Virus record (IMG/VR): IMGVR_UViG_3300009678_000019
Location: 1-46,385 of that record
Origin: a virus
Taxonomy: Duplodnaviria > Caudoviricetes
Length of the DNA: 46,385 nt
Direction: 5' to 3' (one strand)
In this document: positions 7,808-45,342 of the stretch, piece after piece
How the letters are laid out: each line of letters begins with the position of its first letter
How positions within the stretch are numbered: the stretch's first letter is position 1
Notes under the pieces: model-generated
Told to the model about the DNA's origin: nothing
Database searches by the model: none
The model's input: the letters and a program-made list of their open reading frames with translations, nothing else
Position numbers and translations under genes: made by a program

Positions 7808-7836
7808 TGCCGCATTTGATCAAAAGGAAGCGAAGC

Positions 7837-8235
7837 ATGGATGCGACGCAAAGCTGGAAAGGAATCCGGCATTTCAGCCCGAAGGAGTTCGACTCTCCTG
7901 ATGCGCCAGGCTCGGGGCTGAACATGGACTTGGCGTTTGTCGCGAAGCTCGACGAGCTGCGCGATCGCTGCGGGTTTCCCTTCTCCGTCAACTCGGGATA
8001 TCGAACGCCGGCCCATAACACCAAAGTCTCCGGCGTTCAGCACTCGGCGCACACCTCCGGCCACGCGGCCGATATCCGCGCGGAATCCTCGGGCGCGAAG
8101 TTTCAAATCATCAAACACGCGATCGCGATGGGGTTCACCCGGATCGGCGTCGGCGCCACGTTCGTGCACGTCGACGACGATGAAACAAAGCCGCAAGAAG
8201 TGGTGTGGCTGTACGCCGTCAGAGGGGAGTCCTAA
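7837..8235 (+). CDS. Endolysin, peptidase M15 family
   Basis: F...EF, NSGYR...HN, SAH..G.AADI and FVHVD zinc-ligand motifs. Confidence 0.9.
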   Translation: MDATQSWKGIRHFSPKEFDSPDAPGSGLNMDLAFVAKLDELRDRCGFPFSVNSGYRTPAHNTKVSGVQHSAHTSGHAADIRAESSGAKFQIIKHAIAMGFTRIGVGATFVHVDDDETKPQEVVWLYAVRGES

Positions 8236-10813: not shown

Positions 10814-11187
10814 GCGACCTCGTCCACAACGCGGCGGATCCGAAACAGGTCCGATTCGCGAAGGAACAAGAGAAGCGCCGGGCGGACCAAGAGGCCGCGG
10901 CGATGCGAGCGGTACTCGCGACGGAGGCCGGCCGACGGGCGATTTGGACGCGACTCGAAAAGTGCGGCGTCTTCCGCTCCAGTTGGGACCTGGATCCGCA
11001 CACGGTCTATTTCAACGAAGGACGCCGGCAAGTCGGCCTCGAGCTGATCGCCGATATTGCCGCGGCCGACGAAACCGCGCTGCTGCACATGATGAGCGAA
11101 GCGCGCCGGCGCGAAGCGGACGAACGGATCGCGCTCGAGAAGGCGCAAAAAAAGAAACAAGAGGGAACGCCCGATGGCAATGGATGA
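10810..11187 (+). CDS. Bbp19-like protein
   Basis: T.AGRR.IW..L..CGVF.SS......FNEGRR.VGL motif and post-portal position. Confidence 0.8.
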   Translation: MSDLVHNAADPKQVRFAKEQEKRRADQEAAAMRAVLATEAGRRAIWTRLEKCGVFRSSWDLDPHTVYFNEGRRQVGLELIADIAAADETALLHMMSEARRREADERIALEKAQKKKQEGTPDGNG

Positions 11188-11779
11188 TGCCGCATTTCAA
11201 GCCTCGTTGAACGAGGACCAAAAAGCATATTTCGGGACCGCGATCACGTCCGCCTCCGAAGCGGCCGTCACGAAGCATAAGACGGACGCCGAAGAGGCCC
11301 GCAAGAAAGGGATCCCGGACAAATACGAACTCAAACCCGCGGAGAAATCCGCGCTTGAAGCGACCGACCTCGAGAGGATTTCGCAATATGCAAAATCGAA
11401 TGGACTCTCCCAAGAGCAAGCGGCCGCACTCCTTAAGCACAGCGAAGAAACCGCGACGTCGATCGTCGGCCGGAAAGACACGGCCGCGAAAACTGAACGC
11501 GAGGCCTGGGCGGAGAAAACCAAAACCGATAAGGAAGTCGGCGGCGAGCATTACGCCCAAACGTTGATTCACGTCAAGCGCGTCGCGGATCGCTTTTTCC
11601 CGAAAGATTCCGCGTTCTCGAAATTCCTCGAGGAAACCGGCTACGGCAATCATCCGGAGTGGGTGCGGTTTATCAACTCGATCGGGAGAGCGATGGGCGA
11701 AGACACACCGGGAAGCGGGCAACCGGCGATCGGCGGCGACAAGAAGCTGAAAGCGGATCACGAGGTCTTCTTCAACTAA
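11174..11779 (+). CDS. Capsid scaffolding/assembly protein
   Basis: GLSQEQA and TG.GNHP..VR....IG..MGED motifs, immediately before the capsid gene. Confidence 0.75.
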   Translation: MAMDDAAFQASLNEDQKAYFGTAITSASEAAVTKHKTDAEEARKKGIPDKYELKPAEKSALEATDLERISQYAKSNGLSQEQAAALLKHSEETATSIVGRKDTAAKTEREAWAEKTKTDKEVGGEHYAQTLIHVKRVADRFFPKDSAFSKFLEETGYGNHPEWVRFINSIGRAMGEDTPGSGQPAIGGDKKLKADHEVFFN

Positions 11780-11828
11780 AGGAATCGCTCCCAAGGACGG
11801 GAGCTAACGAACCACGGAGGGTTCACAC

Positions 11829-12833
11829 ATGGCAGCTCTAGCAAACACACACCCGACTCTTTTGGATTTCCAGGCCACGCTGGGCCCCGACGACAAAGTC
11901 GGCCGCACGATCGGGATCCTGGATGAAGTCAATCCCATGATCGCGGACGTGAACATGATCGAGGGCAACGAGGTCGATTCGCACGTCTCGATGATGGATA
12001 CAGGCATCCCTGAGCCGGCCTTCCGGAAGTACTACGGCTACACCCAGCCGGCGAAAGGAACGCAGGCCAAAGTGCGCGACACCTGCGCGATGGCCGAAGC
12101 CTATCCGGAAGTCGACAAGGCGCTGGCCGATCGCAATAACAACGCGGCCGCGTTCCGGATGAATCAGCTTCGGAAACACATCGAAGGCTTCGGCCAGAAG
12201 TTTTCCACCAGCGTGTTCTATGGAAACAGCGCGACCGAACCCGAAGGCGTGCTCGGCCTGGCGCCGCGCTTCGCCACGAAATCCGGCGCGGTGAATGGCG
12301 AGAACATCATCCTCGGCGGCGGCGCCGGCGCCGACAACGCGAGTATCTGGCTCGTCGTTCACGGGGAAACAAAGGGTCTGCACGGTTTCTATCCGAAAGG
12401 ATCGCAAGCCGGGATCCAGATCAACGACCAAGGCGAGCAGACGAAACCGGATCCGGCAGGAACCGGCGGTTACATGCAGGTGTACCGCAACCACATCCGA
12501 TGGGACTGGGGTTTTGCGGTTCCCGATTGGCGCTACATCGTGAGAATCCCCAACATCGACGTGAGCGACCTCAAGAAAGACCCATCTACCGGAGGCGCCG
12601 ACCTGATCGAAAAGATCACGATGGCGCTCGAGCTCCCGCCGGACCTCAACGGCCGCCCGATCATTTATTGCTGCCGGACGCTCCGCACGTTCCTTCGGTT
12701 GCAAGTCCAGAACGCCGTAAAGAATTCCACGCTCACGATGGAAGACGTCGCGGGCAAGAGGATTCTGATGTTCGACGGCATCCCCGTCAAGCGCGTGGAC
12801 TCGCTTCTCGAGAACGAATCCCTCGTCGCGTAA
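11829..12833 (+). CDS. Major capsid protein (BPP-1 Bbp17-like)
   Basis: GGAGG RBS; TG.P...FR, VDKALAD, FYGN...P....GLA.R, SIWLV, DWRY.VRI.NID, FDGIP....D. Confidence 0.92.
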   Translation: MAALANTHPTLLDFQATLGPDDKVGRTIGILDEVNPMIADVNMIEGNEVDSHVSMMDTGIPEPAFRKYYGYTQPAKGTQAKVRDTCAMAEAYPEVDKALADRNNNAAAFRMNQLRKHIEGFGQKFSTSVFYGNSATEPEGVLGLAPRFATKSGAVNGENIILGGGAGADNASIWLVVHGETKGLHGFYPKGSQAGIQINDQGEQTKPDPAGTGGYMQVYRNHIRWDWGFAVPDWRYIVRIPNIDVSDLKKDPSTGGADLIEKITMALELPPDLNGRPIIYCCRTLRTFLRLQVQNAVKNSTLTMEDVAGKRILMFDGIPVKRVDSLLENESLVA

Positions 12834-12846
12834 ACCGGTCAACCGC

Positions 12847-12870
12847 GCTGGCGTCTTCAAAGACGCCAGC
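12847..12870 (+). promoter_or_regulatory. Perfect 10-bp hairpin after the capsid gene (mRNA stabiliser/attenuator)
   Basis: GCTGGCGTCT-TCAA-AGACGCCAGC with no following U tract. Confidence 0.5.
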
Positions 12871-12902
12871 AAAAACGGACTTCAACCAAGGAGGGTTGAA
12901 TC

Positions 12903-13379
12903 ATGGCTCTTTTGGACAAACTCACAGAATTTTGCGATGCCGTCTCGGTTGCCGGTTCGGCCGGGACCGCCCTGGTCGGTAGTCAAGTGGACCTGAGCGT
13001 CGCGCGCGACCTGGGCAACCTGGGCGAGGCTCTCTATTTCATGATCACCGTGGACACCGAGATCATCACCGGCGGATCTGCCGGCACGATCATTTTCAAG
13101 CTGTCGTCCGACGCGACGGCGGCGATCGCGACGGACGGAACCGCGACCGATCACATCGTCAGTAAGACTTACGTTACTGATGATTCGGCGGCGAACGATT
13201 CGCAGATGAACGCGGGCGGGATTCCCGTCTGTGTGAAGCTGCCGCTCGAGGGACCCGTGTACGAGCAGTTCCTCGGCGTGCTGGTGGTGATCGGAACGAC
13301 CACGGTCACAGCCGGCAAGATCAACGCGTTTTTCACAACCAATCCGCAGGCCTGGAAGGCCTATCCCAACGCGATCTAA
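12903..13379 (+). CDS. Capsid cement/decoration protein (Bbp16-like)
   Basis: LLD...F.D....S..VDL...RDLG.GE.L...TAGKINAF...WKAYP pattern, directly after the capsid gene. Confidence 0.82.
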   Translation: MALLDKLTEFCDAVSVAGSAGTALVGSQVDLSVARDLGNLGEALYFMITVDTEIITGGSAGTIIFKLSSDATAAIATDGTATDHIVSKTYVTDDSAANDSQMNAGGIPVCVKLPLEGPVYEQFLGVLVVIGTTTVTAGKINAFFTTNPQAWKAYPNAI

Positions 13380-13386
13380 CGCGTGA

Positions 13387-13430
13387 CTCGAGTTGAACCC
13401 CCTCCCCCGGGGTTCAGCTCGAGCTTTTTT
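13387..13430 (+). terminator. Rho-independent terminator
   Basis: CTCGAGTTGAACCCC..GGGGTTCAGCTCGAG followed by CTTTTTT. Confidence 0.8.
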
Positions 13431-13454: not shown

Positions 13455-13652
13455 ATGCGCGTACGAGCGACAAAACGCTGCTTTATTGAAAACTCTCTTC
13501 GTCTACCCGGGAAGGAATTCGCTCTCCTGGATCCGAAGCATTTCAACCCGAAATGCATGGAGAAGCTCGACGGCCGCAAGCCGCCCGCGGCGACCAACGA
13601 ACCAAAGAAACCGGAAACCAGTGCGCCGACCGGATCGCAAGAGGTCATCTAG
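13455..13652 (+). CDS. Small virion-module protein (MRVRATKRCFI...)
   Basis: AAGGAGG RBS; typical post-cement small gene. Confidence 0.7.
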   Translation: MRVRATKRCFIENSLRLPGKEFALLDPKHFNPKCMEKLDGRKPPAATNEPKKPETSAPTGSQEVI

Positions 13653-13654: not shown

Positions 13655-14482
13655 ATGAAACGAACACTTACGTTACTGGCGTGCATCCTGGCCTTCGCGA
13701 TCGGGGCGCAGGCGCAGGCCCGGGTGATTCCGCTCCAAACCATCTACGGGACCGGCACGTTCACGACAACGCTCCCGGTTGGCAATCGGTCCCACGAATT
13801 TGTGTACACCGTCGGCCAGGGTATTTCCGCGATCTCCGTTGTGGTGAAGGCCGGCGCTCGAGGCTCGGCCGGATCCCTAACCACGCTGGACACAAAGACC
13901 GCGCTCGATGGCAGCGACAACCATGTGACGTTTTCCGGGGTGTACGACTACCTCGAGGCGACGGTCACCGCAACCGGAGCGGGCCCGATCAATGGGTCGT
14001 ATATCGGCGCGCCGGCGGTGGGCGGCGGGACCGGGTTCACGCTCCTCGACGACATGGGAAATGTGATTTGCATTGACGGCGCCCCGTGTTGGGTGACTTC
14101 GGAGCCTTCAGGCCCCCAACCGAAGGCGGATTCGACGTCGGTCGCGCCGGCGACGGATGCCAGCTTCCCGACAACGCCCGATTACAACTTCACAACACCG
14201 GCGGATTTCTCGCTGCAGTTCGTTCCCGATTCCCTGACGGCCCTGACCGCGAGCGCGGTCCTGGTGATGTCCATCGAATGCAACAACCAAACAACGAGCG
14301 CAGCCACGCTCGGTATTACCAACACGGCAGCAACGCTGTATATCACTGGCACCCTGTTCTCCATACCGCCGAAGGCCAGCTACTCCCGAAGCTTCCCCCA
14401 GGGAATCGTCATGGATGGCATCAAGTGGATCGCGGGCACGGCCAGCGCGATCAACTGCACGGTGCGAGGTAAAACGACATGA
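13655..14482 (+). CDS. Signal-peptide-bearing beta-rich protein
   Basis: MKRTLTLLACILAFAIGAQA|Q Sec-type leader; 4 Cys in the mature part. Confidence 0.75.
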   Translation: MKRTLTLLACILAFAIGAQAQARVIPLQTIYGTGTFTTTLPVGNRSHEFVYTVGQGISAISVVVKAGARGSAGSLTTLDTKTALDGSDNHVTFSGVYDYLEATVTATGAGPINGSYIGAPAVGGGTGFTLLDDMGNVICIDGAPCWVTSEPSGPQPKADSTSVAPATDASFPTTPDYNFTTPADFSLQFVPDSLTALTASAVLVMSIECNNQTTSAATLGITNTAATLYITGTLFSIPPKASYSRSFPQGIVMDGIKWIAGTASAINCTVRGKTT

Positions 14483-15105
14483 GGCGGACCGGTATTCTCG
14501 CTTTGCTTATTGTCGTCGGCCTCGGACTGATCGCGGCGGCGGAACCGCAACTGATTTGCAGCGGCGGGAATTGTCCGTGGAGCGGCACGATTCCGGTTGC
14601 GCTAGGGTCCGACGCTCGCGGCGATGTCTATTTCCGCAACAGCTCAGGGAACCTTGCCCGGCTTGCGCTAGGCGCTGCCGGAACGGTGCTGAAGGGTAGC
14701 GCGACGGATCCGGCGTATGCGGCGGTGTCGTTGACGGCGGACGTCTCGGGAGTCCTCCCGCGGGCGAATGGCGGGACCGCTCACTCCGGCGGGATTACCA
14801 CGGCTGCGGACGGGCCGACCGTCACCTTCGATCTTGTGTCAACGAACAGTCTCCTGCAAGCCCTGACACTCGGCGGCAATCGCACGCTCGTGGTATCGAA
14901 TGACGTGGCGGGCGACATCTTCACGCTTCGCTTGATCCAGGATGGGACAGGCTCGCGGACCGTCACTTGGTTTTCCGGAATCAAGTGGCCAGCAGCGACG
15001 GTTCCGACACTCACCACTACGGCAGCCAAGATCGATATTGTGACCTGCATCGTTATCACGGCGGGCAGCGCGTACGAATGCATGGTTGCGGGACAGAATC
15101 TATGA
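14479..15105 (+). CDS. Signal-peptide-bearing tail-fibre-like protein
   Basis: MRRTGILALLIVVGLGLIAAA leader; fibre motifs VSGVLPRANGGT and TL.LIQDGTGSRTVTW...KW....PTLTTTA..IDI. Confidence 0.75.
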   Translation: MRRTGILALLIVVGLGLIAAAEPQLICSGGNCPWSGTIPVALGSDARGDVYFRNSSGNLARLALGAAGTVLKGSATDPAYAAVSLTADVSGVLPRANGGTAHSGGITTAADGPTVTFDLVSTNSLLQALTLGGNRTLVVSNDVAGDIFTLRLIQDGTGSRTVTWFSGIKWPAATVPTLTTTAAKIDIVTCIVITAGSAYECMVAGQNL

Positions 15106-15878
15106 CGCGGCTTCTCGTGATCCTCGGGGTGTTGTGTTGCGCGTCGCTGGCGCTGGCGCAGGTTGGCTACGACACGTCGAACGGCGCGCACCCGACGGGC
15201 ACCAATCCGGTGACCTTCTCGATGACGACCGCCAACGTCGCGAATCGGTTGCAGCTTGGCTCGACCGCGTCCTTTGCGATGTCCGACCCGGCCCCAACGG
15301 TGAGCGACGGACCGACGTATGCGGCCGTTGGGCTCACAGCGGTGGCCGCGGAATTCACCGCGAATTGTTGCGCGAATGACATGTGGGTTCGAGCGCGGGC
15401 TTATTACTTAGTCGCTCCTGCAACTGGAAGCAACACGTACTCGACAACCTACGCGAGTGTCGCCAATGGCAATCCGGCAAACGCTGCGATCAGCCTAAAC
15501 AACGTCAACCAGTCGACGCCAACACGAACGCCATGCACGGCGTCTTCGTCTTCCGGCGCGACGTCCGCGCAGGTGAGCTGTACCACGACCATCGGTGATG
15601 AGTTGGTATGCTTCGTTTCTCTGTGGGCTTACACGGGCGGACCAGGAACGGTCACGTTTAGCGGCTCCGGTCACACCGTGCGATTTCAGGGCAACACGGC
15701 GACGGACGACTACATAGCCATCTCCACCAAAACCGCGACCACGACCACTACAACCTGTGATTGGAGCTGGGTCAACTCAACGCTGATGTACGCCATCGGG
15801 ATTCCCGTCGTTCCCAATTCGCTGCCGGATGCAGGAACGGCGAAGCCGGCGCTTCTGGTTCACGCCTCGGGGCAATAA
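15102..15878 (+). CDS. Signal-peptide-bearing Thr/Ser-rich beta protein (receptor-binding domain candidate)
   Basis: MTRLLVILGVLCCASLALA|Q leader; 6 mature Cys; ATGA coupling. Confidence 0.72.
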   Translation: MTRLLVILGVLCCASLALAQVGYDTSNGAHPTGTNPVTFSMTTANVANRLQLGSTASFAMSDPAPTVSDGPTYAAVGLTAVAAEFTANCCANDMWVRARAYYLVAPATGSNTYSTTYASVANGNPANAAISLNNVNQSTPTRTPCTASSSSGATSAQVSCTTTIGDELVCFVSLWAYTGGPGTVTFSGSGHTVRFQGNTATDDYIAISTKTATTTTTTCDWSWVNSTLMYAIGIPVVPNSLPDAGTAKPALLVHASGQ

Positions 15879-15890
15879 CAAAGGATTGTT

Positions 15891-18800
15891 ATGTTGAAGC
15901 GATTCGTTCTCCCTGTCCTTCTCGCTCTCGGCTCGTGGAACGCCAGTCCGGCTCACGCGCAAACGCCTCCGCCATTTGCGGATTCCTGGATTGGCCTGCA
16001 CACCTATACGTATTTCGGCGTTATTGGAGTGGACACCGCGGCGGAAGCAAGCGCCCTGTGCCCCCGGGCTTGGCAGTTCGACTTCGGATACTCGACGGGC
16101 GGCGGCTACGACGTGTTGCGGGCGTGCAATCCCAGCTACCAGAACACGCTGTATTTCGATGGCATGCAAGGCGAGGGCTGGTCGACGGCGAACCTGCTCG
16201 CGCAGCATCCGGAATGGGTACTTTATCTCTGCGATCGCGTGACGCCGCTCGAGGAATACGACTATCGAGCGAGCGTTCCGAATTTCATCAACGAGGCCTA
16301 TCGCGAATGGAAGTGGGCGAACATCATCGCCCCGCGCTTGTTCAACAACATCAACACTTTCATATTCGACAACATGCTTTTGACGAACACGGCGAGCCCC
16401 GTGAATCCAGACGAGCCGGACATGCCAAATTACGGAGTCTACGGAGCGGCGTGCGGCTACTACCCCACAGCGACGCCAGCGGATCCGCGGCCTGCGGGCG
16501 GCTGGGTCCAACGTTGGTCCGGAAATATGCACGACGTCCAGTGGGTTGACGACGTTATCGACTGGGCAGACTGGCTCACGACCCGCTTGCATGCGAATGG
16601 GAAAAAGTTCTGCCTGCAAGGGTTTCCCGACGAGATCTACTCCCCGTGGCAAATCGCTTTCGCAAAATACGCGGAATTCGTCGAGAAAATTGAATGCGTA
16701 CACGTGGAAGGCAGTGGGATGACGCCTGTGACCATTGGCGGTGGAAGCTTCCGAGCCAACATGAATTTTATTCGGGACATGAACGCGGTGGGCCACGGCG
16801 TCTATCAACTGACCACTCCGATGTTCAACAACGAAAGCTCCTGGTCGTCTGACGACATTCCGGTTGCACTGCACAAGTTCGCGATTGCCTCTTATCTGAT
16901 GGCGAAGGGCCATCACCACGCGATCGCCGTCATTACACCGCTCCAGTTTTTCTACGGCGACGGCTCGACGTACGAAAACACGACGTGGACGCCGCTTTAT
17001 GATGCGATTCATTCCGGCACGGGCGTGACGGGCGCGCGGGGAATCGGAGCGCCATGCGAGGACTATCAAGTTGTCGGGGTGGATAACGGCGGCGACAACC
17101 AGCTCTTCAAAAGAGAACACACGGGCGGGCTCGTTTACATGAACGGCACGGTCACGCATCCAGGTATCCCGGGCCAAGGTATTCCCGGAGGCACCGGCAC
17201 GACGTTTAATCCGACCTTGCCTACGGGCAATTGGGCGGGCTGGCGAGATCCCGATAATAACGTTGTTGCAGGTCCGACGGTCTCGGTGGGGCCGATTGTC
17301 TACACTGGCAATTTCCCTTGGCAACTCGCGTATCCGACCGACTACCCGGTCACGATCATCTTGAAGACTCAACCTAGCGCCGACGATCCACCGCCCGCCT
17401 GTTCGGGAGGCGGCGATCAAACGGCGCCCGTCATCAGCGCCCTGAACGTGATTGACATTGAAACGGACGAGGCCACGCTCGAGTGGACGACGGACGAAAA
17501 CGCGACGGGTCAGGTGTACCTTGCGACGACGAATCCGCCGGCTATTCTCGTGGATTCCGACGCGACGGCGAACAGCACATCGCACTCCTTCACGGCGTCC
17601 AGCCTGACACCGGGCACGACGTACTTCTATCGCGTCGCGTCCGCGGATTCCGCTGGAAACCTGCGCCAGTCCTCGGTGGGCAGCTACACCACGGATGCGG
17701 CGCCAGACGACGTTGTAATCGTAACGACGTCTCCCCTGCCCGATTGCACGGTAGGCGCGGTCTGCTCTTATCAATTTTCGGCGAGCGGCGGAACGACCGC
17801 CGGCGCGGGCGGTTGGCAGTACGAAGTGCAGGCGGCACTGTTTCAGCCGGCAAGTAATCTCACGAACTTTCCGGTGCTGGTCTCCAAACAGCACGACTCC
17901 TTCAAGAGCGTCGCCAACGGCGGGCGCGTGCAAAGCCCGTCCGGGTACGACATTGTTCCGTTTGCGGCGACCGGCGCCACGACGTCGCTCGATTTCGATT
18001 TTGAATCTTGGGATGGCGCGACGGGAACCTGGACGGGCTGGGTCAAAATACCCACGCTCACGAGCGCCACGCCGACCGTGATTTATTTCGCGGTAGGAAA
18101 CGCGACAGCCACACAGTCGAGCGCAAACGAAGCGGCCACGTGGGGCGCCTACAAAGCGGTCTACCATGGCGGGTCTGGAGCTCCGGACGCGACCGGTGGG
18201 CATGGCGGCTCATTCGTCGGCACGGTGTCGTCCGTCTCCGGGAAAGTGGGCTCCGCCTTCGACCTCGGCGCGGCAGCAGGGCGCATCACGGTGGCGGACC
18301 ATGACGACTTTTCGCCCGGGAATGGCTCGACGGATTCCGCGTTCTCTGTGGAACAGTGGGTGAAGTTCACCAACGCCGATAGCGGTATCGACGATATTGT
18401 CGGCAAGTACATCAACCCGCATCGCGAATGGCTGCTGTTCAAGTCGAACACGACGCTGTTCCTTGTGCTTTTCGATGAGTCCACGAACGCGCAAATCGCC
18501 CGCGGCTATTCCATGGCCTGGGATACCGGATGGCATCACGTCGCGGTCACATCCGCCGGCACGGGCGGCGCGGGCATCATTTTCTACATCGACGGCGCTG
18601 CTGTTGCGCAGAACGCCGACTCCGACGATGGCAGCTACACCGCCGTCGAGAACCTGGCAACCGGGGTTGAGATCGGAGGCCGGAACGGCAACAACAATTT
18701 TCGAGGCTTGCTTGACGAAGTCCGATTCACCACCGGTGTGAAGGCGGCAGCGTGGATTGCCGCCAATTATGCGAATCAGAATAATCCCAGCGGGACGGTC

Positions 18801-19826
18801 ACCCTCGGCTCGGAAGCGTCGCTGGGCGGCGCCGGTGGTTATTCCTGGGAGCGCACCGCCGGGAATCTCTGCGAGCTGACGCTGACTGTGGCGACGGCAA
18901 CCCTCGGCGGCATTCCGTCGACGGCGCAGACCTGCAATTTCACGCTGCGGGTGACGGATGCGGCGATGGGCACGGCCAGCCGGTCCTTCGATCTGACGGT
19001 ACAACCGACGCCCGTCGTCGTGACCGCCCTACCGAACGGGCGGCTGGGCGATCTCTACAACCAGCCGATCGCGCCGACGTTCGGCGTTCCGCCCTATGCG
19101 ATAGCGGTCATCGCTGGCGCGTTCCCGTCGGGGATCAATGCGCAAGCGGGCTCGCTCTCTATTGTCGGGACGCCGACGGTGACAGGTAACTTTGATGTCA
19201 CTCTGCAAATCACCGATTCCCTCGGCGCATCGGGCACTCAAGTCTTCGACCTCACGATCGATGACAACCCGGTCGCGCTCGTCACAAATGTTCTCCCTGA
19301 CGCCAAGGCCGGCGTCGTGTACTCGCACACGCTGCAAGCGACAGGCGGATTGCTGCCGCGGACATTTCTGATCGTCGGATCCCTGCCGGCAGGCCTCGCC
19401 CTGGCGGGCGATCAAATCACCGGAACGCCGACAACGGTCGGACCCTACTCGGTGACCGTGCAAGTGCGGGACTCTTCCGATCCCACGGCATTGACGGATC
19501 AGCGGACGTTTGCGCTCAACGTCAACGCGGTGACCGCGCTCGGCGCGGGTTCTCCGACGCCCTATAAGCCGTCGACCTGCCGGAACTACAATCTGGCGCT
19601 GCGGGTCAATGGTGGCGTTCCGCCTTACGCCTGGTCTTTGGCGCCAGGCTCCGCGGCGCTGCCTCCCGGCCTACAACTGAGTGGAAATAGCATCATCGGG
19701 CGAGCGACTCAGCGGGGAACCTATCCGGTCACGCTGCGCGTCACCGATGCGGAAGACACCACGGACAATTTCGCGACCACGTTTACGGTGGTCGCGTGTA
19801 CGGGGGCCGGCGCGGCGTTGCGCTAA
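15891..19826 (+). CDS. Large exported-type multidomain protein: glycoside-hydrolase-like N domain, FN3, DUF2341-like, LamG, putative Ig (He_PIG-like) repeats
   Basis: Leader MLKRFVLPVLLALGSWNASPAHA|Q; HPEW..Y and FIFDN; WTTDE..LTPGTTYFYRV (FN3); LTNFPVLV..W.GWVKIPTL; WHHVAVT..FYIDG..F.GLLDEVRF (LamG); GG.PPY.W..GSLP.GL repeats. Confidence 0.85.
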   Translation: MLKRFVLPVLLALGSWNASPAHAQTPPPFADSWIGLHTYTYFGVIGVDTAAEASALCPRAWQFDFGYSTGGGYDVLRACNPSYQNTLYFDGMQGEGWSTANLLAQHPEWVLYLCDRVTPLEEYDYRASVPNFINEAYREWKWANIIAPRLFNNINTFIFDNMLLTNTASPVNPDEPDMPNYGVYGAACGYYPTATPADPRPAGGWVQRWSGNMHDVQWVDDVIDWADWLTTRLHANGKKFCLQGFPDEIYSPWQIAFAKYAEFVEKIECVHVEGSGMTPVTIGGGSFRANMNFIRDMNAVGHGVYQLTTPMFNNESSWSSDDIPVALHKFAIASYLMAKGHHHAIAVITPLQFFYGDGSTYENTTWTPLYDAIHSGTGVTGARGIGAPCEDYQVVGVDNGGDNQLFKREHTGGLVYMNGTVTHPGIPGQGIPGGTGTTFNPTLPTGNWAGWRDPDNNVVAGPTVSVGPIVYTGNFPWQLAYPTDYPVTIILKTQPSADDPPPACSGGGDQTAPVISALNVIDIETDEATLEWTTDENATGQVYLATTNPPAILVDSDATANSTSHSFTASSLTPGTTYFYRVASADSAGNLRQSSVGSYTTDAAPDDVVIVTTSPLPDCTVGAVCSYQFSASGGTTAGAGGWQYEVQAALFQPASNLTNFPVLVSKQHDSFKSVANGGRVQSPSGYDIVPFAATGATTSLDFDFESWDGATGTWTGWVKIPTLTSATPTVIYFAVGNATATQSSANEAATWGAYKAVYHGGSGAPDATGGHGGSFVGTVSSVSGKVGSAFDLGAAAGRITVADHDDFSPGNGSTDSAFSVEQWVKFTNADSGIDDIVGKYINPHREWLLFKSNTTLFLVLFDESTNAQIARGYSMAWDTGWHHVAVTSAGTGGAGIIFYIDGAAVAQNADSDDGSYTAVENLATGVEIGGRNGNNNFRGLLDEVRFTTGVKAAAWIAANYANQNNPSGTVTLGSEASLGGAGGYSWERTAGNLCELTLTVATATLGGIPSTAQTCNFTLRVTDAAMGTASRSFDLTVQPTPVVVTALPNGRLGDLYNQPIAPTFGVPPYAIAVIAGAFPSGINAQAGSLSIVGTPTVTGNFDVTLQITDSLGASGTQVFDLTIDDNPVALVTNVLPDAKAGVVYSHTLQATGGLLPRTFLIVGSLPAGLALAGDQITGTPTTVGPYSVTVQVRDSSDPTALTDQRTFALNVNAVTALGAGSPTPYKPSTCRNYNLALRVNGGVPPYAWSLAPGSAALPPGLQLSGNSIIGRATQRGTYPVTLRVTDAEDTTDNFATTFTVVACTGAGAALR

Positions 19827-19854: not shown

Positions 19855-21081
19855 ATGGCAAAAAAATTTACGGCGCTGGATGCGCTCGCGAGTCCCGTTT
19901 CCACCGATCTGCTCGCGGTGGTCAGTAGCCCGGCCAGCTCCGCCGTCACCAAGAAGTCCACGATCGCGGCGATCCTGAACACGCCGGGATGCTTCCCCAC
20001 GGGAATGCACTTGGATCTGGCGACGGATGCGCTCTTGGCCAACTCCGTGTTCCGCGCAAAAGGCTACTCGCCGGCGTACGAGCTCCTCGACAAAGACGGC
20101 GCGCAAAACTTCTACATGGGGATCGATGACGACGACGGCAATAAATTCGTCATCGGCCGCGGCTACGGTCCAGGGCAAAAGATCGCCGGCGTTCCGATTG
20201 CGCGATCGATCTCGATCAACCCGACGACTCTTGTCGTCTCGATTGGCTCCTCGGCCCCGACCGCGCCGCAAGGCGTGTTTTCGGTCCAGTCGGATGACAG
20301 CTACGGGGCGAATGATTGGGTGGCCTGGTTCCGCCGGACCGGATCCACGGGCGGCGGCGTCTCCGCGCACATGCGCTTGCAACACTTCCGCGCCGGAGCG
20401 TCTCCGGAACCGGTCTTCTCGTTCCTGGCGGCTCGGGGCTCGCTGGCGTCGCCGTCGGCCGTACTCGCCGGGGATCTCTTGGGTGTGATCGACGCGCGCG
20501 GCTTCGACGGCTCGGCCGTCGATCACACCGAATATGCGGTGGGCTGGTCGGACGGCATGACCGGTTGGGCGATGCACGCGGCGGGCAACTGGAGCGGGAC
20601 CTCACATCCGTCCTATCAGCGGTGGTACGTCACGCCCGACGCAAGCGTGACGGCGGTCACGGCTCTGACTCTCGACTCGGACGGCAACTTTAACTATGGA
20701 ACCAACCCGGCAACAGCCGGACTCCTCCGGCTGCCGAACGCGAAATTGATCGCGTTCCGCAATGCGGCGAATGACGCGAATGTCGAAGGCCTCCAGGTCA
20801 ATTTGTCAAACGTTGTCATTCTCGGCGATACGAGCTTCGACCTTTTGCTGAAGGGCGCGAAGCACGGCTTCTTTGGGACGCCGGCCGTCGTGAAGCAAAC
20901 CTCCGGGGCGGATCTGACGAATAGCGTCACGTCGGGCGGTTCGAGCGATGTGATCGCCAACTACACCGATTTGTCGACGTACGCGACGGACGCCGCGGCG
21001 ATCCGCAACAACATCTATCAACTCGCGCGAAAGGTGAAGCAAATCAACGACGGCCTTCGCGCTTATGGGCTCTTCACCTAA
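19855..21081 (+). CDS. Tail fibre / tail spike protein (no signal peptide)
   Basis: GGAGG RBS; N-terminal MAKKFTAL...DLLAVV...TKK.TI fibre anchor; RGS.ASPSAV..GD.LG repeat; C-terminal GFFG..AV...LRAYGL. Confidence 0.75.
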   Translation: MAKKFTALDALASPVSTDLLAVVSSPASSAVTKKSTIAAILNTPGCFPTGMHLDLATDALLANSVFRAKGYSPAYELLDKDGAQNFYMGIDDDDGNKFVIGRGYGPGQKIAGVPIARSISINPTTLVVSIGSSAPTAPQGVFSVQSDDSYGANDWVAWFRRTGSTGGGVSAHMRLQHFRAGASPEPVFSFLAARGSLASPSAVLAGDLLGVIDARGFDGSAVDHTEYAVGWSDGMTGWAMHAAGNWSGTSHPSYQRWYVTPDASVTAVTALTLDSDGNFNYGTNPATAGLLRLPNAKLIAFRNAANDANVEGLQVNLSNVVILGDTSFDLLLKGAKHGFFGTPAVVKQTSGADLTNSVTSGGSSDVIANYTDLSTYATDAAAIRNNIYQLARKVKQINDGLRAYGLFT

Positions 21082-21083: not shown

Positions 21084-21323
21084 ATGAGAACGAAAACAAT
21101 CACTCCAGAAATGCACGCGACGCTGCGCGTGCTGATGGAACAGCGCGATCAGGCGGCCGCCCAACAGAAGGAAGCGGCGGCCGCCGCCGCCGGCTATCAA
21201 CGCTTGATCGACAACTTCCTCGGCATGTGCCGGACGAAATTCAATCTCGCCGAGGATGCGGTCTTCGACGACGGAAAGCTGGTGTTTCACGCCAAACGTC
21301 CAAAGCGCCCCAAAGGGAAATAA
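21084..21323 (+). CDS. Small coiled-coil protein (fibre chaperone candidate)
   Basis: Helical Ala-rich ORF right after the fibre gene. Confidence 0.55.
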   Translation: MRTKTITPEMHATLRVLMEQRDQAAAQQKEAAAAAAGYQRLIDNFLGMCRTKFNLAEDAVFDDGKLVFHAKRPKRPKGK

Positions 21324-23156
21324 GTGGCAACCGAAACACAAATCGGGAACCTCGCGCTCACGCGCGCCGGCATCACGCAATACTTGACCGATCTCGACAC
21401 GGACACGTCGAACGATGCGGCCGCGCTGCGGGCGGTCTTTGACCTCGAGCGGGATTTTGTGTTGCGGGACTACCCCTGGCCCTGGGCCCGGAAACACGCC
21501 ACGCTCGAACTGCTCTCGACCAACCCCAACAGCGATTGGCTGTACAGCTACCGCTATCCCGCCGATTGCGTGCTGGTGCGTCGCCTGGTGACGGCGCTCG
21601 GCCGGCAAGAAACAGATCCGCCGCCATTCTCGGTCGGTCGCGATGGATCGACGCGCGCGATCTTCACGAATGAGGCCTCGGCGAAAGCGGAATACACGCT
21701 CCAGGTCACGGCGGCCGAAGACTTCGATTCGATCTTTGTGTCGATGTTCGCCTGGCGCTTGGCTTCGGAGCTTGCCTTGTCGCGGGCGCGATCGCCGGAG
21801 CTGGCGACAACCTGCCTGCAGGCCTACGCGGCCGAACGGGCGCAAGCGATCACGAAGGCGGCCGCCGAAGCGCAGCACACCTTGCCGGCCGGCGCGGACC
21901 ATGCCCGGATCCGCGAGCTGCTGCAGCTCGCGTTGACGCGGATCGGCGTCTCGAAATCCACAGTGAGCGCCGATATCGAGCTGTCCCTCGAGGCGCTTTG
22001 GCCGCGGATTAATTTCGCGATCGAGCGGGATTTTGTGTTGCGGGATTGCCCCTGGCCCTGGGCCCGAAAGTATGCCGCTCTCGTTTTGATGCAAAGCGCA
22101 CCCAATTCGGATTGGGCCTACAGCTATCGCTATCCCGCCGATTGTCTCTTCGTTCGAAGGATCGTTACGGCGGCCGGCCGCGGCGAGGCGGATCCGCCCG
22201 AATTTGCGATCGGGAGCGACGATTCCGGTCAAATCGTCTACACGAACGAAACGGCCGCGGTCGCCGAATACACGCGCAAGGTCACGGATCCGGATCAATT
22301 CGACGCCCACTTCATTAGCCTGATGGCCTGGCGGATCGGCGCCACGCTCGCGCCTGGTCTTTCGAAAATCGACAAAATGGCGGACGTCGCAATGGAGCGG
22401 TACCAGGCCGAAAAGGCCGCGGCGATCAATCGCGCCATGCTCGAGGGTGAGCGCGCGATCGCGTCGGGATCCTCGCATCCGGTCGGCCGGAAAATCTTCC
22501 ACCTGGCGTTGACGCGTCTCGGGATCACGAAAAACGTCCTCGTCGCCGATTCCGAGTACTCCTTAGAAGCTCTCTGGCCGCGAGTCGATTTTGCAGAGGA
22601 GCGGGATTTCGTGTTGCGGGATTTCGAATGGCCGTTTGCGACCGAATACGCGACGCTCGAACTCCTCGCCGGCAGCTCTACGGAACCGGTCAACGGTCAC
22701 TGGACGTTCGCCCACGCGTTCCCTGCCGACGCGCTGATGGTGCGCCGCATTGTCGGACCGGGCGGCCGGACCGACACCACGCGCGTTCCGTTCCGCATCG
22801 GCCGGGATGCCTCCGCGACCACGCTCACGACCGAAGACGGGGAATCCCTCACGACCGAAGACGGCGAGATCCTCATCACCGAAGGCACGCCGGCGCGGAC
22901 GGTGTTTGCCGACCTGGAGGAACCGGAAGTGGAGTACACAAAGGCGATCACAGATCCGTCGGAATTCGATCCGATCTTCCTCTCGATGATGGCTTGGCGG
23001 ATCGCCGGGCTGGTCGGACCGGGACTGAAGAAACCGAAGGAAGCCGCGGCAGCGATGCAAATGTACGACTACGAAAAACAGCGGGCGCAGTGCCAGGCCT
23101 TGAACGAAGGCCAGGCGGACGACGCGCCGGACGCGGAATGGATCCGCGGGCGCTGA
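21324..23156 (+). CDS. Tail tubular protein A / head-tail adaptor (T7 gp11-like), three tandem domains
   Basis: LALTR.G, ERDFVLRD.PWP.A, W.Y.Y.YPAD and FD..F...AWR occur three times; located before the nozzle gene. Confidence 0.85.
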   Translation: MATETQIGNLALTRAGITQYLTDLDTDTSNDAAALRAVFDLERDFVLRDYPWPWARKHATLELLSTNPNSDWLYSYRYPADCVLVRRLVTALGRQETDPPPFSVGRDGSTRAIFTNEASAKAEYTLQVTAAEDFDSIFVSMFAWRLASELALSRARSPELATTCLQAYAAERAQAITKAAAEAQHTLPAGADHARIRELLQLALTRIGVSKSTVSADIELSLEALWPRINFAIERDFVLRDCPWPWARKYAALVLMQSAPNSDWAYSYRYPADCLFVRRIVTAAGRGEADPPEFAIGSDDSGQIVYTNETAAVAEYTRKVTDPDQFDAHFISLMAWRIGATLAPGLSKIDKMADVAMERYQAEKAAAINRAMLEGERAIASGSSHPVGRKIFHLALTRLGITKNVLVADSEYSLEALWPRVDFAEERDFVLRDFEWPFATEYATLELLAGSSTEPVNGHWTFAHAFPADALMVRRIVGPGGRTDTTRVPFRIGRDASATTLTTEDGESLTTEDGEILITEGTPARTVFADLEEPEVEYTKAITDPSEFDPIFLSMMAWRIAGLVGPGLKKPKEAAAAMQMYDYEKQRAQCQALNEGQADDAPDAEWIRGR

Positions 23157-23203
23157 GGCGCATAAGTAAGCCGTAAATACGACTTAATTAAGCAAAGGCA
23201 CGG

Positions 23204-25711
23204 ATGCCGAACCTTTCACATCTCCGACGATTCCAGGCCGGCGAGATCGCGCCGGAGCTGGGGGCGGGTTCCACGGAGCCGGCGCTCGCGACCTGTCGCA
23301 ATTTCCTGATCACGAAAAGCGGTGGAGCGGATAACCGCGCGGGGACGCAATTCACCAGGGAAGTGAAGGATTCCACCAAGCGCACGCGGCTCATTCCCTT
23401 TATTTTCGGCGCGTCGGACTCTTACCTCGTCGAAATGGGAGAAAGCTATTTCCGCTTCCTCCGCGAAAACGCGATCGTCACCGTGGATAGCGTCGTCTCG
23501 CCGTGGTCGAACGCCGAAACATATGTCGCCGGCGACGTCGTTTCCCGCCTGGGCGTCAACTATTACTGCATCCTCGGGCACATCAACCAACAGCCGCCGA
23601 ACGGCACGTATTGGTACGCGCTGAGCTCGAACATTCTCGAGGTCCCGCACAGCTACACGGCCGCCCAAGTGGCGGTGATCCGGTTCGATCAATCCGGGGA
23701 TGTGATCGATCTCTATCACCCGTCCGTTGCTCCGAAATCGCTCTCGCGGTCGGCGTCACCTGTCCTGCGCTGGGTGTTATCGACCAAGTCCTTCGCCCCC
23801 CGCATTCAGGCGCCGACCTCTCCGAGTGCTACCGAAGGCGTGGCCGGCACAACGGATTGGAACTACCAGGTGACGGCCGTCGCCGACAAAACCTATGAAG
23901 AGTCTCTGCCGACGACAACGTTTGACTGCACGGGCGGACAGCCAACCAAAGAGAATCCGAATCAACTCACCTGGGCTTCGGTGTCTGACGTCTATTGGGG
24001 CGCGGCCGCCAATGCCATCGAGTACAACGTCTATCGGGAGATCACTCCCGGGGGCGCGTTCGGTTTGATCGGCGTCGCCAAAACCACGACGTTTGACGAT
24101 CCCGGCCTCGAGCCTGACGAATCGCAAACCCCGCCCCTCTCGAGAAATCCCTACAGTCTGGTCGGGGCTCCACGCACGGGTACGCATTGCCAGCAACGGC
24201 AATTCGTCGCTGGCGCGACCACGGATCCGGAAACGGTATTCGCCTCGAGGACGGGCCACTATTCGAATTTCACGACGTCGTCGCCCATCCAGGATGATGA
24301 CGCGATCACGTTCCGCCTGGCTGGGAACCAGGTCCAACAGGTCGAACATTTGATCGAAGCCGACGGCCGGCTCGCCATGCTCACCGACGGCGGAATCTGG
24401 TTTCCTCAAGGCGACGACGCCGGCGTCTTGACGCCGGCCGCGATCTATCCGAAGCAACGATCGAGTTTCGGCTCTTACGCGACGCCTCCCGTGGTCGTGC
24501 ACGATTCCCTCATCTATGTCCAGTTTGGCGGAAACACGCTGCGCGACATGCGATGGAACGCCGAAGCGGAAGGATTTACCGGACGCGATCTGATGCGGAT
24601 CGCCTCGCATCTCACGAAAGGCCGGTCGATCGAGCGGCTCGCGTTTGCGGCGGTACCGGATTCAATCGTGTGGGCGCTGCGCGACGACGGCGTCCTGCTC
24701 GGCCTCACGTATCTCCCGGAACTCGAAGCCTTCGGCTGGCATCGTCACGACACGGTGAACGGCGCGATTGAAGACATTGCGGTGATACCCGAAACCACGC
24801 CTCCGCCTCCCGGATCCGCGACGCGCGGGAAAGTGGAGCACGTGCTCTATCTCGTCGTCAACCGCACGATCAACGGATCGACGAAGCGATACATCGAACG
24901 CATGTCTTCCCGCAACATTGAAGACTATCGTCTCGATGCGACGCTGCTCGATTCCTTCCTGAGCTACAACGGCGCGAACGCCGGCGCGACCACGGTCACG
25001 CTCTCGACGGCCGGCGGCTGGACTGAAGCGGATTTGATTACCGTCACGGCGAGCGGCGCCACGTTTTCCGCCGGAGACGTCGGGAACGGCATCACGGTAT
25101 GGGTTCAGGGCGGCGCCGTCGCGCGGATCCGCGTCACGCAATACATTTCCGACACGGTCGTCAAAGGAAACCCGATCGACGACGTCGACGAAACCCTGCA
25201 AGGGGTCGCGACAACCAATTGGTCGCGCGCCGTCGACGAAGTCTCTGGTCTCTCGCATCTTGAGGGCGAGGACGTCGTCGTTCTGGCGAACGGCGTTGTG
25301 CTTGCCGCGACCGTCTCGGCCGGCGCGATCGCGCTCGATGATGTGTACGACGTGATCCATGTCGGTCTGCCAATCACCGCGGATTTCGAAACCCTCGACC
25401 TGGACGTCGCTCCGGATCCAGGCCTGCGCGACAGGCAAAAGTTAGTGAAATCCGTCTCCGTCTTGGTAAAGCGATCGCGCGGCATCATGGCGGGCCCGGA
25501 CGCCAAGCATCTTCATGAATTCCATCCGATCGCCGGCCAGGCGCTCGGCCTCGATGTGTTCACGCCGGCGTCGGGAGTCCTGCGAACGGAGATCCTCGAG
25601 CTCGACGTCAACGCCACCTGGGAGAAACCAGGGCGAGTCTTCATCCGGCAAACCGCCCCGCTGCCGCTCTCGATCCTCGGAGTCCTGCCCTTTGGTGAGG
25701 TGGGTAACTGA
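23204..25711 (+). CDS. Tail tubular protein B / nozzle (T7 gp12-like)
   Basis: F.AGEI.P, CRNF....GG..NR.GT, RLIPF.F, QSGDV, QQR, SRTG.Y.NF, W.RHDT, Q..PLPL.IL. Confidence 0.9.
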   Translation: MPNLSHLRRFQAGEIAPELGAGSTEPALATCRNFLITKSGGADNRAGTQFTREVKDSTKRTRLIPFIFGASDSYLVEMGESYFRFLRENAIVTVDSVVSPWSNAETYVAGDVVSRLGVNYYCILGHINQQPPNGTYWYALSSNILEVPHSYTAAQVAVIRFDQSGDVIDLYHPSVAPKSLSRSASPVLRWVLSTKSFAPRIQAPTSPSATEGVAGTTDWNYQVTAVADKTYEESLPTTTFDCTGGQPTKENPNQLTWASVSDVYWGAAANAIEYNVYREITPGGAFGLIGVAKTTTFDDPGLEPDESQTPPLSRNPYSLVGAPRTGTHCQQRQFVAGATTDPETVFASRTGHYSNFTTSSPIQDDDAITFRLAGNQVQQVEHLIEADGRLAMLTDGGIWFPQGDDAGVLTPAAIYPKQRSSFGSYATPPVVVHDSLIYVQFGGNTLRDMRWNAEAEGFTGRDLMRIASHLTKGRSIERLAFAAVPDSIVWALRDDGVLLGLTYLPELEAFGWHRHDTVNGAIEDIAVIPETTPPPPGSATRGKVEHVLYLVVNRTINGSTKRYIERMSSRNIEDYRLDATLLDSFLSYNGANAGATTVTLSTAGGWTEADLITVTASGATFSAGDVGNGITVWVQGGAVARIRVTQYISDTVVKGNPIDDVDETLQGVATTNWSRAVDEVSGLSHLEGEDVVVLANGVVLAATVSAGAIALDDVYDVIHVGLPITADFETLDLDVAPDPGLRDRQKLVKSVSVLVKRSRGIMAGPDAKHLHEFHPIAGQALGLDVFTPASGVLRTEILELDVNATWEKPGRVFIRQTAPLPLSILGVLPFGEVGN

Positions 25712-43612: not shown

Positions 43613-43894
43613 ATGGCACAGACGGGGCCGGAAAAGGTCCGGTCGATGAGAGCTCAACCGTCCGGCGCGATCGGCGACCCGCCGTCCCGCGATGAACTCG
43701 AACTCCTGACGCCGGAGGAGCTCGCTGAACTCTTCAAGGTCCCGCTCTCCTGGGTGCGCAGCGCGACGCGCAGCCGCTCGCCTCATCCGATCCCGCACGT
43801 CAAGATTGGTCACTACGTCCGCTTTGAAGAAGAAGCGGTGCGTGAGTGGTTTCACAAACAGAAACGCGGCTATCGCCCTAAACGGCTGCAATGA
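43613..43894 (+). CDS. xis: Excisionase (HTH_17/MerR-like), start uncertain
   Basis: LLTPEELAELFKVPLSWV...IPHVKIG.YVRF....V.EW, adjacent to int. Confidence 0.85.
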   Translation: MAQTGPEKVRSMRAQPSGAIGDPPSRDELELLTPEELAELFKVPLSWVRSATRSRSPHPIPHVKIGHYVRFEEEAVREWFHKQKRGYRPKRLQ

Positions 43895-43944
43895 ATACAA
43901 TCTCCCGCACACCAAGGCAACGGCAGCCAGAAGAAGGAGACTTC

Positions 43945-45150
43945 ATGGCTCAACACAAACGCAAACGGCAGTGCGGGACCGGCTCGATCGTTCAGGAGGA
44001 ATCCGGCTTGGCGATCCGGTGGCCGGAATATGTCGTGCTTCCGGATGGTCAACGAAGGCGCAAGATGCGCTACGAGCTTCTCGAGGGCGCAACCGCTCGA
44101 GAGGCGAACGACAAACTTCTCGAGCGCATCACGAAGGCGCGCCGGGATGGACCGAAGCCGCTCGAAGTAAAAGCGGCTACGACGTTCCAGGATCACGTCG
44201 CCCGCTGGCAGAAAGATTTTCTCGAATCGGCCGGCGCGGGGACCGAGGATCTCTACAAATTTTCCGTTCGTTCCGTCTGGCTGGGCATCATCAAGGCCAG
44301 ACTCAGCCCTCGTTTCGGCAAGTTCCGTTTAACGGAAATCTCCGCGGCTCTGATCCAGGAATGGATCACCGAACTCCGCCGGGAAGGCCTCGCGGCGGCG
44401 ACGATTCGCCAGTATTACAAACCGCTGCGGGTCATTTTGGCGCGGGCGGTCCTCTGGAAAGAGATCGCGGAGAATCCAGCAAATCCAGTGGAGTTGCCGA
44501 AGATTCGCAAAAAGGAGCAATCGCAAAAAAAATGGGCGCTGACGCCGGAACAAGCCGGGGCGCTGCTCGGAAAGATCAAGCCATTGAGACCGCGGGCGAT
44601 GATCGCCCTCGCCATTACTGCAGGCCTCCGACGGGGGGAGCTGCTCGCAGCACGTTGGAAGAGTCTTGACGAAGCCTCTTCTGAAATTGCGGTAGTGGAA
44701 GCGTCATATCGAGGACACATCGACACACCGAAAACCGAAGCTGGAGAACGGAAGGTCCCGCTCGATCAATGGACGATGCATATCTTAAAGCAGTGGCGCG
44801 GCCTGTCGAAGCACACGCGACCGATCGATTTCATCTTTTCAACCCGGACGGGCAAACAGGAAACCCCGGGCAACATCCTCCGGCGCTACGTCTTTCCGGC
44901 GTGCGACGCGATGAAGTTGCGGCGGGCCACCTGGAACACCTTCCGGCGAACATTTTCAACCTGGCTCCATCACCACGCGATTCCCGGTAAGACGATCGCG
45001 ACGATGATGGGCCATGCCGACGAGAAAACCCAATTCATCTACATCCAACCGGATGAGGATATGAAACGGGTGGCGGCGGGCAAGATTGGCGACGAATTGT
45101 CCAGATACTGTCCAGATGAGAATCAAATGGGGCTCCCGTGGTTGAACTGA
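43945..45150 (+). CDS. int: Tyrosine integrase
   Basis: AAGGAG RBS; GLRRGELLA..W, PKT, NTFRRTF (HxxR box variant), MMGH, terminal Y (FIY). Confidence 0.93.
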   Translation: MAQHKRKRQCGTGSIVQEESGLAIRWPEYVVLPDGQRRRKMRYELLEGATAREANDKLLERITKARRDGPKPLEVKAATTFQDHVARWQKDFLESAGAGTEDLYKFSVRSVWLGIIKARLSPRFGKFRLTEISAALIQEWITELRREGLAAATIRQYYKPLRVILARAVLWKEIAENPANPVELPKIRKKEQSQKKWALTPEQAGALLGKIKPLRPRAMIALAITAGLRRGELLAARWKSLDEASSEIAVVEASYRGHIDTPKTEAGERKVPLDQWTMHILKQWRGLSKHTRPIDFIFSTRTGKQETPGNILRRYVFPACDAMKLRRATWNTFRRTFSTWLHHHAIPGKTIATMMGHADEKTQFIYIQPDEDMKRVAAGKIGDELSRYCPDENQMGLPWLN

Positions 45151-45342
45151 CGGGAGGGTACAAGGTAGTGCGAATCGAGAGGGTTGCGGCTAAGTGGGCG
45201 CGACCGGGATCGAACCGATGACCTCTACCGTGTCAAGAAAGATCAAACCAGCTATGTGATTGGGCTGCCGTTGTTTTGGTTGACGGTCTGCGCCATTAAT
45301 AGCCCTCATTCGGCAATCTACTGTCCAGATAACTGTCCAGAT
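45098..45342. repeat. Integrase arm-type sites TGTCCAGAT x4 flanking the att core
   Basis: Direct copies at 45098, 45109, 45322 and 45334. Confidence 0.8.
45194..45237 (-). mobile_element. attP core: 3' half of tRNA-Val(GAC)
   Basis: Minus strand reads CTTGACACGGTAGAGGTCATCGGTTCGATCCCGGTCGCGCCCAC (anticodon loop, T arm, acceptor); 5' half absent; next to int. Confidence 0.88.

Follow-up and report, generated by a model that had tools for sequence, protein, structure and literature searches.

Four adjacent leader-bearing genes in the virion operon of a BPP-1-like podovirus as candidates for exported appendages

Leaders and cysteines of the A-D proteins

The window analysed here, all 46,385 nt of IMG/VR virus record IMGVR_UViG_3300009678_000019, represents a complete virus and carries direct terminal repeats. 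Its virion operon contains, between the capsid cement gene and the adaptor gene, four adjacent genes (A-D, Table 1) whose predicted products all start with Sec-type leaders. By the usual view, tailed phages complete their particles inside the cytoplasm, ahead of lysis. A preliminary description of this DNA proposed a two-compartment assembly, in which such proteins are exported, folded with disulfides in the periplasm and joined to the particles at lysis. The parts concerning export and periplasmic disulfide folding are now well supported, indirectly, by the specificity of the leaders, an even-Cys bias, a Phe/Gly to Cys/Cys replacement in B and the presence of VKOR in all five candidate-host genomes. 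The position of the four genes and their leaders had been described correctly, but a 65-aa gene and a terminator-like hairpin precede A, and two more genes, E and F, follow D.

Genes A and B, as well as B and C, overlap in ATGA, as had been noted, and C and D are 12 nt apart. A rule of our own, requiring basic, hydrophobic and AxA segments, flags five of the 263 ATG starts in the window (at least 100 aa, both strands), namely A-D and one membrane protein at 40544, and none of the 15 other virion-operon proteins tested. The basic n-region, hydrophobic h-region and AxA c-region stand at the likely true starts, according to this heuristic and to start coupling. In particular, the longer starts given by the open reading frame (ORF) finder for A (13553) and C (14967) fall inside upstream genes, the leader starts being the coupled ones or those backed by a ribosome-binding site; in B and D the starts used take up 0.99 and 1.0 of the open frame, leaving almost no possible upstream start.

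The residue after AxA is Gln or Glu in all four leaders. The Q-rule for exported proteins of Bacteroidota calls for Gln at +1 and a glutaminyl cyclase in the host. Proteins C and D have this Gln, as does A in one of its readings, and a search for cyclases of the PF05096 type gave no score above the cut-off in the five candidate-host genomes. There is no lipobox Cys at the cut site, the leader Cys residues in positions 10 (A) and 12-13 (C) lying within the h-region, and no second hydrophobic segment was found in A-D (best 19-residue hydropathy at most 1.6). Lipoproteins of signal peptidase II and membrane-anchored proteins were considered and ruled out for A-D by the missing lipobox and further segment. 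Tat export was also rejected, on inspection by eye, as the two arginines of B do not make up the consensus.

Recounting of the mature Cys residues gave the same even numbers as reported earlier: 4, 4, 6 and 14 in A, B, C and D, respectively. Four even counts are expected by chance with probability 1/16, and the parity argument needs a wider survey, given below. VKOR is encoded by two genes in each of the five candidate-host genomes, while DsbB was found in none of them.

Table 1. Features of the region between the cement and adaptor genes, and the integrase locus, in window coordinates
Feature	Coordinates	Strand	Basis or remark
Major capsid (GP7) and Bbp16 cement, left border of the slot	11829..13379	+	Pfam PF20911, PF21190
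Strong hairpin after the cement gene, intrinsic-terminator-like	13387..13423	+	15-pair stem and T run
Leaderless gene, 65 aa, in the BPP-1 bbp15 position	13455..13652	+	position only
A, 275 aa: Sec-type leader of ~20-22 aa, two beta-rich parts, Pro/Thr-rich linker; Cys 139/145, 209/268	13655..14482	+	
B, 208 aa: 21-aa leader, short fibre shaft, C-terminal beta-sandwich knob; Cys 27/32, 190/201	14479..15105	+	PHROG, fold
C, 258 aa: 19-aa leader, Ser/Thr-rich, 6 mature Cys	15102..15878	+	
D, 1311 aa: 23-aa leader, GHL15-like part 24-505 (lead only), Fn3, DUF2341, LamG lectin, He_PIG Ig repeats; 14 mature Cys	15891..19826	+	Pfam
E, 408 aa: leaderless fibre-like protein	19855..21081	+	N-terminus like leaderless B-family fibres
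F, 79 aa: no leader; a fibre chaperone is a guess based on its position and helical appearance	21084..21323	+	no family match
Adaptor (three phrog_394 stretches) and nozzle (phrog_376), right border of the slot	21324..25711	+	PHROG
Tyrosine integrase and adjoining attP-like 44-nt 3' half of tRNA-Val(gac)	43891..45237 (44-nt stretch 45194-45237, minus strand)	+	temperate lifestyle, host clue

Protein B, a fibre relative with a leader

One of the four proteins had been noted for fibre motifs. B proves to be a fibre relative both by PHROG and by fold. It matches a PHROG tail fibre (E 2e-9) and has homologues in 11,304 representatives at E<=0.001; BFVD yields 208 matches at the same threshold, several of them named fibres. 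The knob of the predicted model (mean predicted local distance difference test, pLDDT, 80) is most similar to the Pa223 capsid spike knob (Z 8.2, root-mean-square deviation 2.9, 95 residues aligned), and the next best are a non-phage chain, a T4-like baseplate protein, a tailspike and CBA120 TSP4. Phage spike, tailspike or baseplate proteins make up five of the seven chains listed at Z of at least 5.6. Foldseek comparison of the model with PDB gave no match at E<=0.001. Taken with the family matches, the model supports B as a putative virion-type fibre from a huge, normally leaderless phage family. The B profile has no match in the five candidate-host genomes.

The preliminary description held that homologues without leaders would speak against its proposal. 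For the family of B this is literally the case: no leader was found in 83 viral loci (8 of them open at the 5' end), and 116 of the 120 Met-starting representatives among the best 150 hits are leaderless, but these proteins are cytoplasmic fibres of other phages. What they show is that a virion family has been sent along another route, not that the leader of B is spurious. Moreover, leaderless LamG or C-like genes adjoin B homologues, and thus the module exists elsewhere in a cytoplasmic form.

In the B model, Cys190 and Cys201 are placed on neighbouring strands, at positions where relatives have Phe (118/130) and Gly (113/130). Cys occurs at both positions in three rows of the alignment only: B itself, P0091 (with a leader from Met8) and one 5'-truncated fragment. 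Without the query, the pair is found in one of three leader-bearing homologues vs none of 116 leaderless ones (p 0.025), two heuristic leader calls (P0100, P0102) having been discarded by eye before this count. In P0119, a B-family fibre, a leader appears, by eye, to stand directly ahead of an ordinary cytoplasmic fibre N-terminus. A complex prediction for three B tips with C scored 0.34, and one control scored 0.47.

Leader-bearing genes in metagenomes and in cultured phages

The metagenome scan for P0091 comprised 72 loci, of which 46 were analysed. Among the 44 matched ORFs, 28 have a leader, 12 have none and four are cut; at least two leader genes are present in 20 of the 42 non-duplicate loci. 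An even-Cys bias is a signature of disulfide-bonded exported proteins. Even numbers of Cys were observed in 39/48 leader-bearing vs 76/145 other proteins (at least 200 aa, 42 loci; Fisher p 3.5e-4), and the bias is retained for neighbours that were not chosen by the query (21/24 vs 76/147, p 8e-4). This count leaves out four near-duplicate loci as well as any ORF that was shorter than 200 aa or open at the 3' end, and is based on rough gene calls in contigs mostly not verified as phage.

Two of the loci, L218 and L219, are BPP-1-like by their portal, capsid, adaptor and nozzle homologues, and in both of them leader genes lie between the capsid and adaptor genes: four flagged and one recognised by eye in L218, two in L219. 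One leader gene in this slot is a PHROG tail fibre. Gene 6403 of L218 has no match in cultured phages. A leader-bearing protein of the sialate O-acetylesterase family (PF03629) is encoded at 11104-12000 within the virion operon of L218.

Leaders are also present in virion genes of cultured phages. In Cellulophaga phage phi18:3 (GenBank KC821620, bases 24000-71443), 12 genes are annotated as structural from tandem mass spectrometry (MS/MS). Three of them, gp085-087, are consecutive and encode leaders in which Gln follows the apparent cut site; the other nine have none. In the podoviruses Tunturi 1 and 2 of Acidobacteriota (PP887698, PP885685), leaders were found on gp12, 13, 14, 16 and 17 of the virion operon, including the genes annotated as tail fibre and tail spike/pectin lyase; gp14 and gp17 of Tunturi 2 contain pectate-lyase-like or beta-helix domains. 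The mature Cys counts of these five proteins are 20, 10, 20, 1, and 32 or 34. In Tunturi 5 a leader is found in one of 13 genes examined, an annotated lipoprotein.

The slot and its other genes

The distance between the cement and adaptor genes is 7.9 kb here, compared to 295 bp in BPP-1 and 270-774 bp in 13 capsid relatives with both borders, and thus A-F represent an insertion. No leader block is present in the 17 non-identical capsid relatives. Genes A-D are situated downstream of the hairpin, together with the neck and tail genes, with no promoter-like site upstream of A and no T-rich terminator downstream of D (by a sigma-70 consensus scan, which may miss host promoters). The GC content of A-D, both overall and in third codon positions (GC3), resembles that of the core genes. 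As the block has neither its own promoter-like site nor a terminator and is core-like in GC and GC3, it is not a self-contained moron.

Protein A has no match in Pfam, PHROG or NCBIfam. Its ESM Atlas features are similar (0.92-0.93) to viral clusters, and residues 180-275 align with a 106-aa viral cluster (template modelling score 0.73, by target). It is likely to be a capsid decoration or spike protein. C, likely an adhesin, weakly matches the leaderless gene directly after the B homologue in locus L094 (E 0.0026 over 2,418 ORFs); the profile did not grow. In residues 24-505 of D the ESM features are close (0.95) to PF14885 clusters, yet there is no hidden Markov model match, and the single-sequence model has pLDDT 32. 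The LamG domain of D matches leaderless neighbours of B homologues in many loci, and its Ig repeats match phage tail proteins. By its N-terminal part D may be a glycoside hydrolase, resembling a secreted glycosidase as much as a virion part. In a search of 5.8 billion proteins (near-length window), A was matched by a 100%-identical fragment only and C by itself only, and no homologue of D 24-505 was found.

Residues 3-60 of E align with the fibre of locus L083 (E 6e-4) and residues 4-44 with P0103 (E 6.5e-5). E is a candidate for a cytoplasm-built fibre that could serve as the docking site for the exported proteins.

The adaptor gene (21324-23156; 610 aa), with its three phrog_394 stretches, is about three times as long as in BPP-1 and constitutes a fused triple adaptor. 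Between the portal and Bbp19 genes, in the bbp20 position of BPP-1, there is a leaderless beta-rich 293-aa gene (9932-10813) with homologues in loci L009 and L019, possibly encoding a decoration protein.

The phage and its probable host

The portal (PF12236), Bbp19, GP7-type capsid, Bbp16 cement, adaptor, nozzle and internal proteins match BPP-1 families and are encoded in the BPP-1 order, the major capsid protein being 48% identical to that of BPP-1. A helix-turn-helix regulator is encoded besides the tyrosine integrase. Judged by its gene content, the phage is a BPP-1-like temperate podovirus. No cassette of a fibre and Mtd with a diversity-generating retroelement (DGR) follows the giant ejection gene: 3' of 34949 there is only an 81-aa lipoprotein-like gene, and then genes on the opposite strand. 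With this cassette missing from the end slot, the phage is BPP-1-like rather than a member of Rauchvirus.

The 44-nt attP-like stretch has exact matches at 28 places in the genome collection, 24 titled as Acidobacteriota or their subgroups and four as Acidimicrobiia; 27 of the 28 are tRNA-Val(gac) genes. Since most of these matches are in Acidobacteriota, the host is likely a species of this phylum. The same tRNA end is present twice, about 21 kb apart, on one Solibacteraceae contig (L052/L068), once within a full tRNA and once bare, which is the arrangement that integration of an element at the tRNA-Val site should leave. The capsid, portal and integrase have no match in genome contigs, hence there is no named prophage relative, and searches of viral contigs with D and the nozzle gave identical copies only.

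The metagenomes holding this DNA are from freshwater sediment and groundwater, with no RNA dataset among the listed holders. Four public runs have contigs that together cover the A-D region, and neither indels nor differing letters are listed for them; no single contig of these runs spans the whole region, and one run may be the source of the record itself.

Several other features of the genome were observed. A serine recombinase/resolvase gene (1714-2310) coexists with the tyrosine integrase gene (43891-45150), a tRNA-Met gene is located at 42640-42714, and a short tandem repeat lies near the genome end (46300-46372), where the minus-strand ORF 45983-46372 opens with five copies of a five-residue unit. 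The lysis genes seem to be split between a stretch ahead of the portal gene (6944-8235), which contains small hydrophobic genes and one for an M15 peptidase endolysin, and the lipoprotein-like 81-aa gene after the ejection gene (35000-35245).

Proposed assembly route and alternative explanations

The balance of evidence tilts towards the reading that A-D are exported via Sec, acquire disulfides in the periplasm and dock on virions at lysis. Its parts differ in strength: export is highly probable, oxidation by a host system of the VKOR/DsbA type is quite probable, and incorporation of at least B into virions is fairly probable. Late transcription past the terminator after the cement gene would yield A-D, which would be exported and relieved of their leaders by the host Sec system and signal peptidase I, and then disulfide-bonded in the periplasm. 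When the holin and endolysin open the envelope, the two compartments would mix and A-D could bind the finished, cytoplasm-built particles, with leaderless E or the capsid as candidate binding partners; B would then act as a fibre, C and D as adhesins and A as decoration. Such late spontaneous binding is plausible, since P22 tailspikes and T4 Hoc/Soc can bind completed heads in vitro, and a Sec-exported, disulfide-bonded receptor-binding protein is workable, as the example of M13 pIII (see below) indicates. The likely gain is stable, disulfide-locked host-recognition gear. The weakest points are the virion part bound by A-D and whether D is attached or free. More tentatively, many tailed phages of soil, sediment and water may use two building sites, the cytoplasm for the capsid, the neck and a single anchor fibre, and the periplasm for fibres, adhesins, enzymes and decoration that are locked by disulfides, all being joined in the lysing cell; here, this would include all of A-D, with B as the docking stalk for the lectin C and the glycosidase-lectin D.

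A number of observations weigh against docking, or against parts of this route. A-D are known here from their genes alone, their leaders were called by the rule described above and not by SignalP, and A, C and the N-terminal part of D have no sequence homologues. The Z-scores of 6-8 for B count as middling according to the tool itself, the Cys pair is missing from two of the other three leader-bearing homologues of B, and the N-terminal segment common to E and some leaderless B-family fibres is absent from mature B, which may have a short anchor of another kind. The codon fit to core genes is lower for B (0.53) and C (0.55) than the 0.64-0.75 seen otherwise. D resembles a secreted bacterial glycosidase, and infection need not depend on A-D, since the fibre-like E has no leader. 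In cultured phages, phi18:3 gp085-087 contain 0, 1 and 3 Cys, and their MS/MS annotation could reflect co-purifying protein; gp16 of Tunturi 1 and 2 has a single mature Cys, and Tunturi 3, which shares its host strain with them, has leaders in none of the 28 genes examined. The Cys-poor phi18:3 proteins and Tunturi gp16 mean that disulfides are not the general reason for export.

In another explanation A-D are exported late and freed at lysis, possibly as a B-C-D lectin/glycosidase complex, where they loosen capsule or biofilm or mark new hosts, E being the sole true fibre. The layout of D, which is that of a secreted enzyme, fits such release, as do the anchor of E with none evident in B and the lack of an identified virion partner; however, the family and fold of B are those of virion appendages, the leader proteins of phi18:3 are annotated as structural, and the large fibre/spike candidates in the virion operon of Tunturi 1 and 2 are the leader-bearing ones, which makes this explanation unlikely. 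Lambda lom is a host-envelope factor embedded in a late operon, and A-D might similarly be factors of lysogenic conversion or of the host envelope, altering the host surface or excluding superinfection. The phage is temperate, and leader-bearing genes of P. gingivalis phages were read as outer-membrane modifiers (Matrishin et al., PMC10367356, in the part of the article available). Against this stand the core-like GC of a block with no promoter-like site before A and no terminator after D, the absence of a lipobox at the cleavage site and of a second hydrophobic segment, the fibre ancestry of B and the leader blocks in the isolates Tunturi 1 and 2, and we consider it improbable.

Finally, the N-termini of A-D may not be export signals at all, being virion-binding or chaperone peptides removed in the cytoplasm, or the proteins may start downstream, with normal assembly in either case. 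Most relatives of B are cytoplasmic, the leaders were called by a heuristic, and the available part of the same article suggests that capsid 'signal peptides' are cut by prohead proteases (PMC10367356). Still, textbook three-part leaders with Gln or Glu after AxA stand on four unrelated proteins at translationally coupled starts, the even-Cys bias follows the leader, whereas a reducing cytoplasm would not select such a bias, and in P0119 a leader appears to have been placed ahead of an ordinary fibre N-terminus. This explanation is as improbable as lysogenic conversion.

The virion type and the family of B are already known, and the routing of the A-D proteins is not. A full-text literature search (listings and abstract starts, most subscription papers being outside its reach) found no paper describing exported appendages of a tailed phage, and such appendages would surprise phage structural biologists. 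If the export and docking route is true, there is an extra assembly step at lysis, and infectivity depends on the Sec and disulfide systems of the host. Many leader-bearing 'secreted enzyme' or auxiliary genes of viromes would then have to be re-read, and leader-bearing receptor-binding proteins would need other expression routes.

Comparison with known systems

As in BPP-1 (Rauchvirus), the order of genes is portal, Bbp19, scaffold, GP7 capsid, Bbp16, adaptor, nozzle, internal and ejection proteins, and the att site is tRNA-derived. Unlike BPP-1, where the fibre gene bbp9 and Mtd are located at the operon end, here the A-F genes fill the cement-adaptor gap, and the end slot has no large gene.

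The C-terminal domain of B is similar in fold to the Pa223 gp52 knob, a T4 gp10-like protein and the XD domain of CBA120 TSP4 (Z 8.2, 7.7 and 6.7, respectively). In TSP4 the match covers residues 79-180, which we take to be the first XD domain. The domains singled out for protein binding are XD2 and XD3, according to the available part of the TSP4 article (PMC8825819). According to the accessible part of the preprint (bioRxiv 10.1101/2025.06.11.659172), Pa223 gp52 forms a trimeric appendage on the capsid, to which it is anchored through the N-terminus. Unlike B, gp52 is modelled from residue 2 and has its own N-terminal anchor.

M13 pIII is a receptor-binding protein that is exported by Sec, has its leader cleaved, forms disulfides in the periplasm and joins the virion last. 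It differs from A-D in being membrane-anchored and added in non-lytic extrusion, while A-D are anchorless and the particle is a tailed virion built in the cytoplasm. Lambda Lom and Bor are morons that use host Sec export. Like them and the Q-rule genes of P. gingivalis phages, A-D are phage genes using host Sec export, but those genes are read as host-surface modifiers without an assigned fold, whereas here one of the genes encodes a fibre, belongs to the virion operon and has no separate promoter-like site. The available part of the Q-rule paper makes no mention of Acidobacteria.

Phage phi18:3 resembles the present case in having consecutive leader-bearing proteins annotated as structural in a cultured phage, and differs in its Bacteroidota host, another virion family and Cys-poor proteins, its record being silent on leaders. 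The terms 'signal peptide' and 'mass spectrometry' are both absent from the main text of the Tunturi paper (PMC11924767), as far as available. No significant sequence similarity to A-D was seen in Tunturi 1 and 2, but these share with the present phage the host phylum and a gp12-17 block of leader-bearing, Cys-rich fibre/spike genes following the capsid and neck genes. As Tunturi 1 and 2, with the leader block, and the leaderless Tunturi 3 are cultured on the same host strain, the question can be tested directly.

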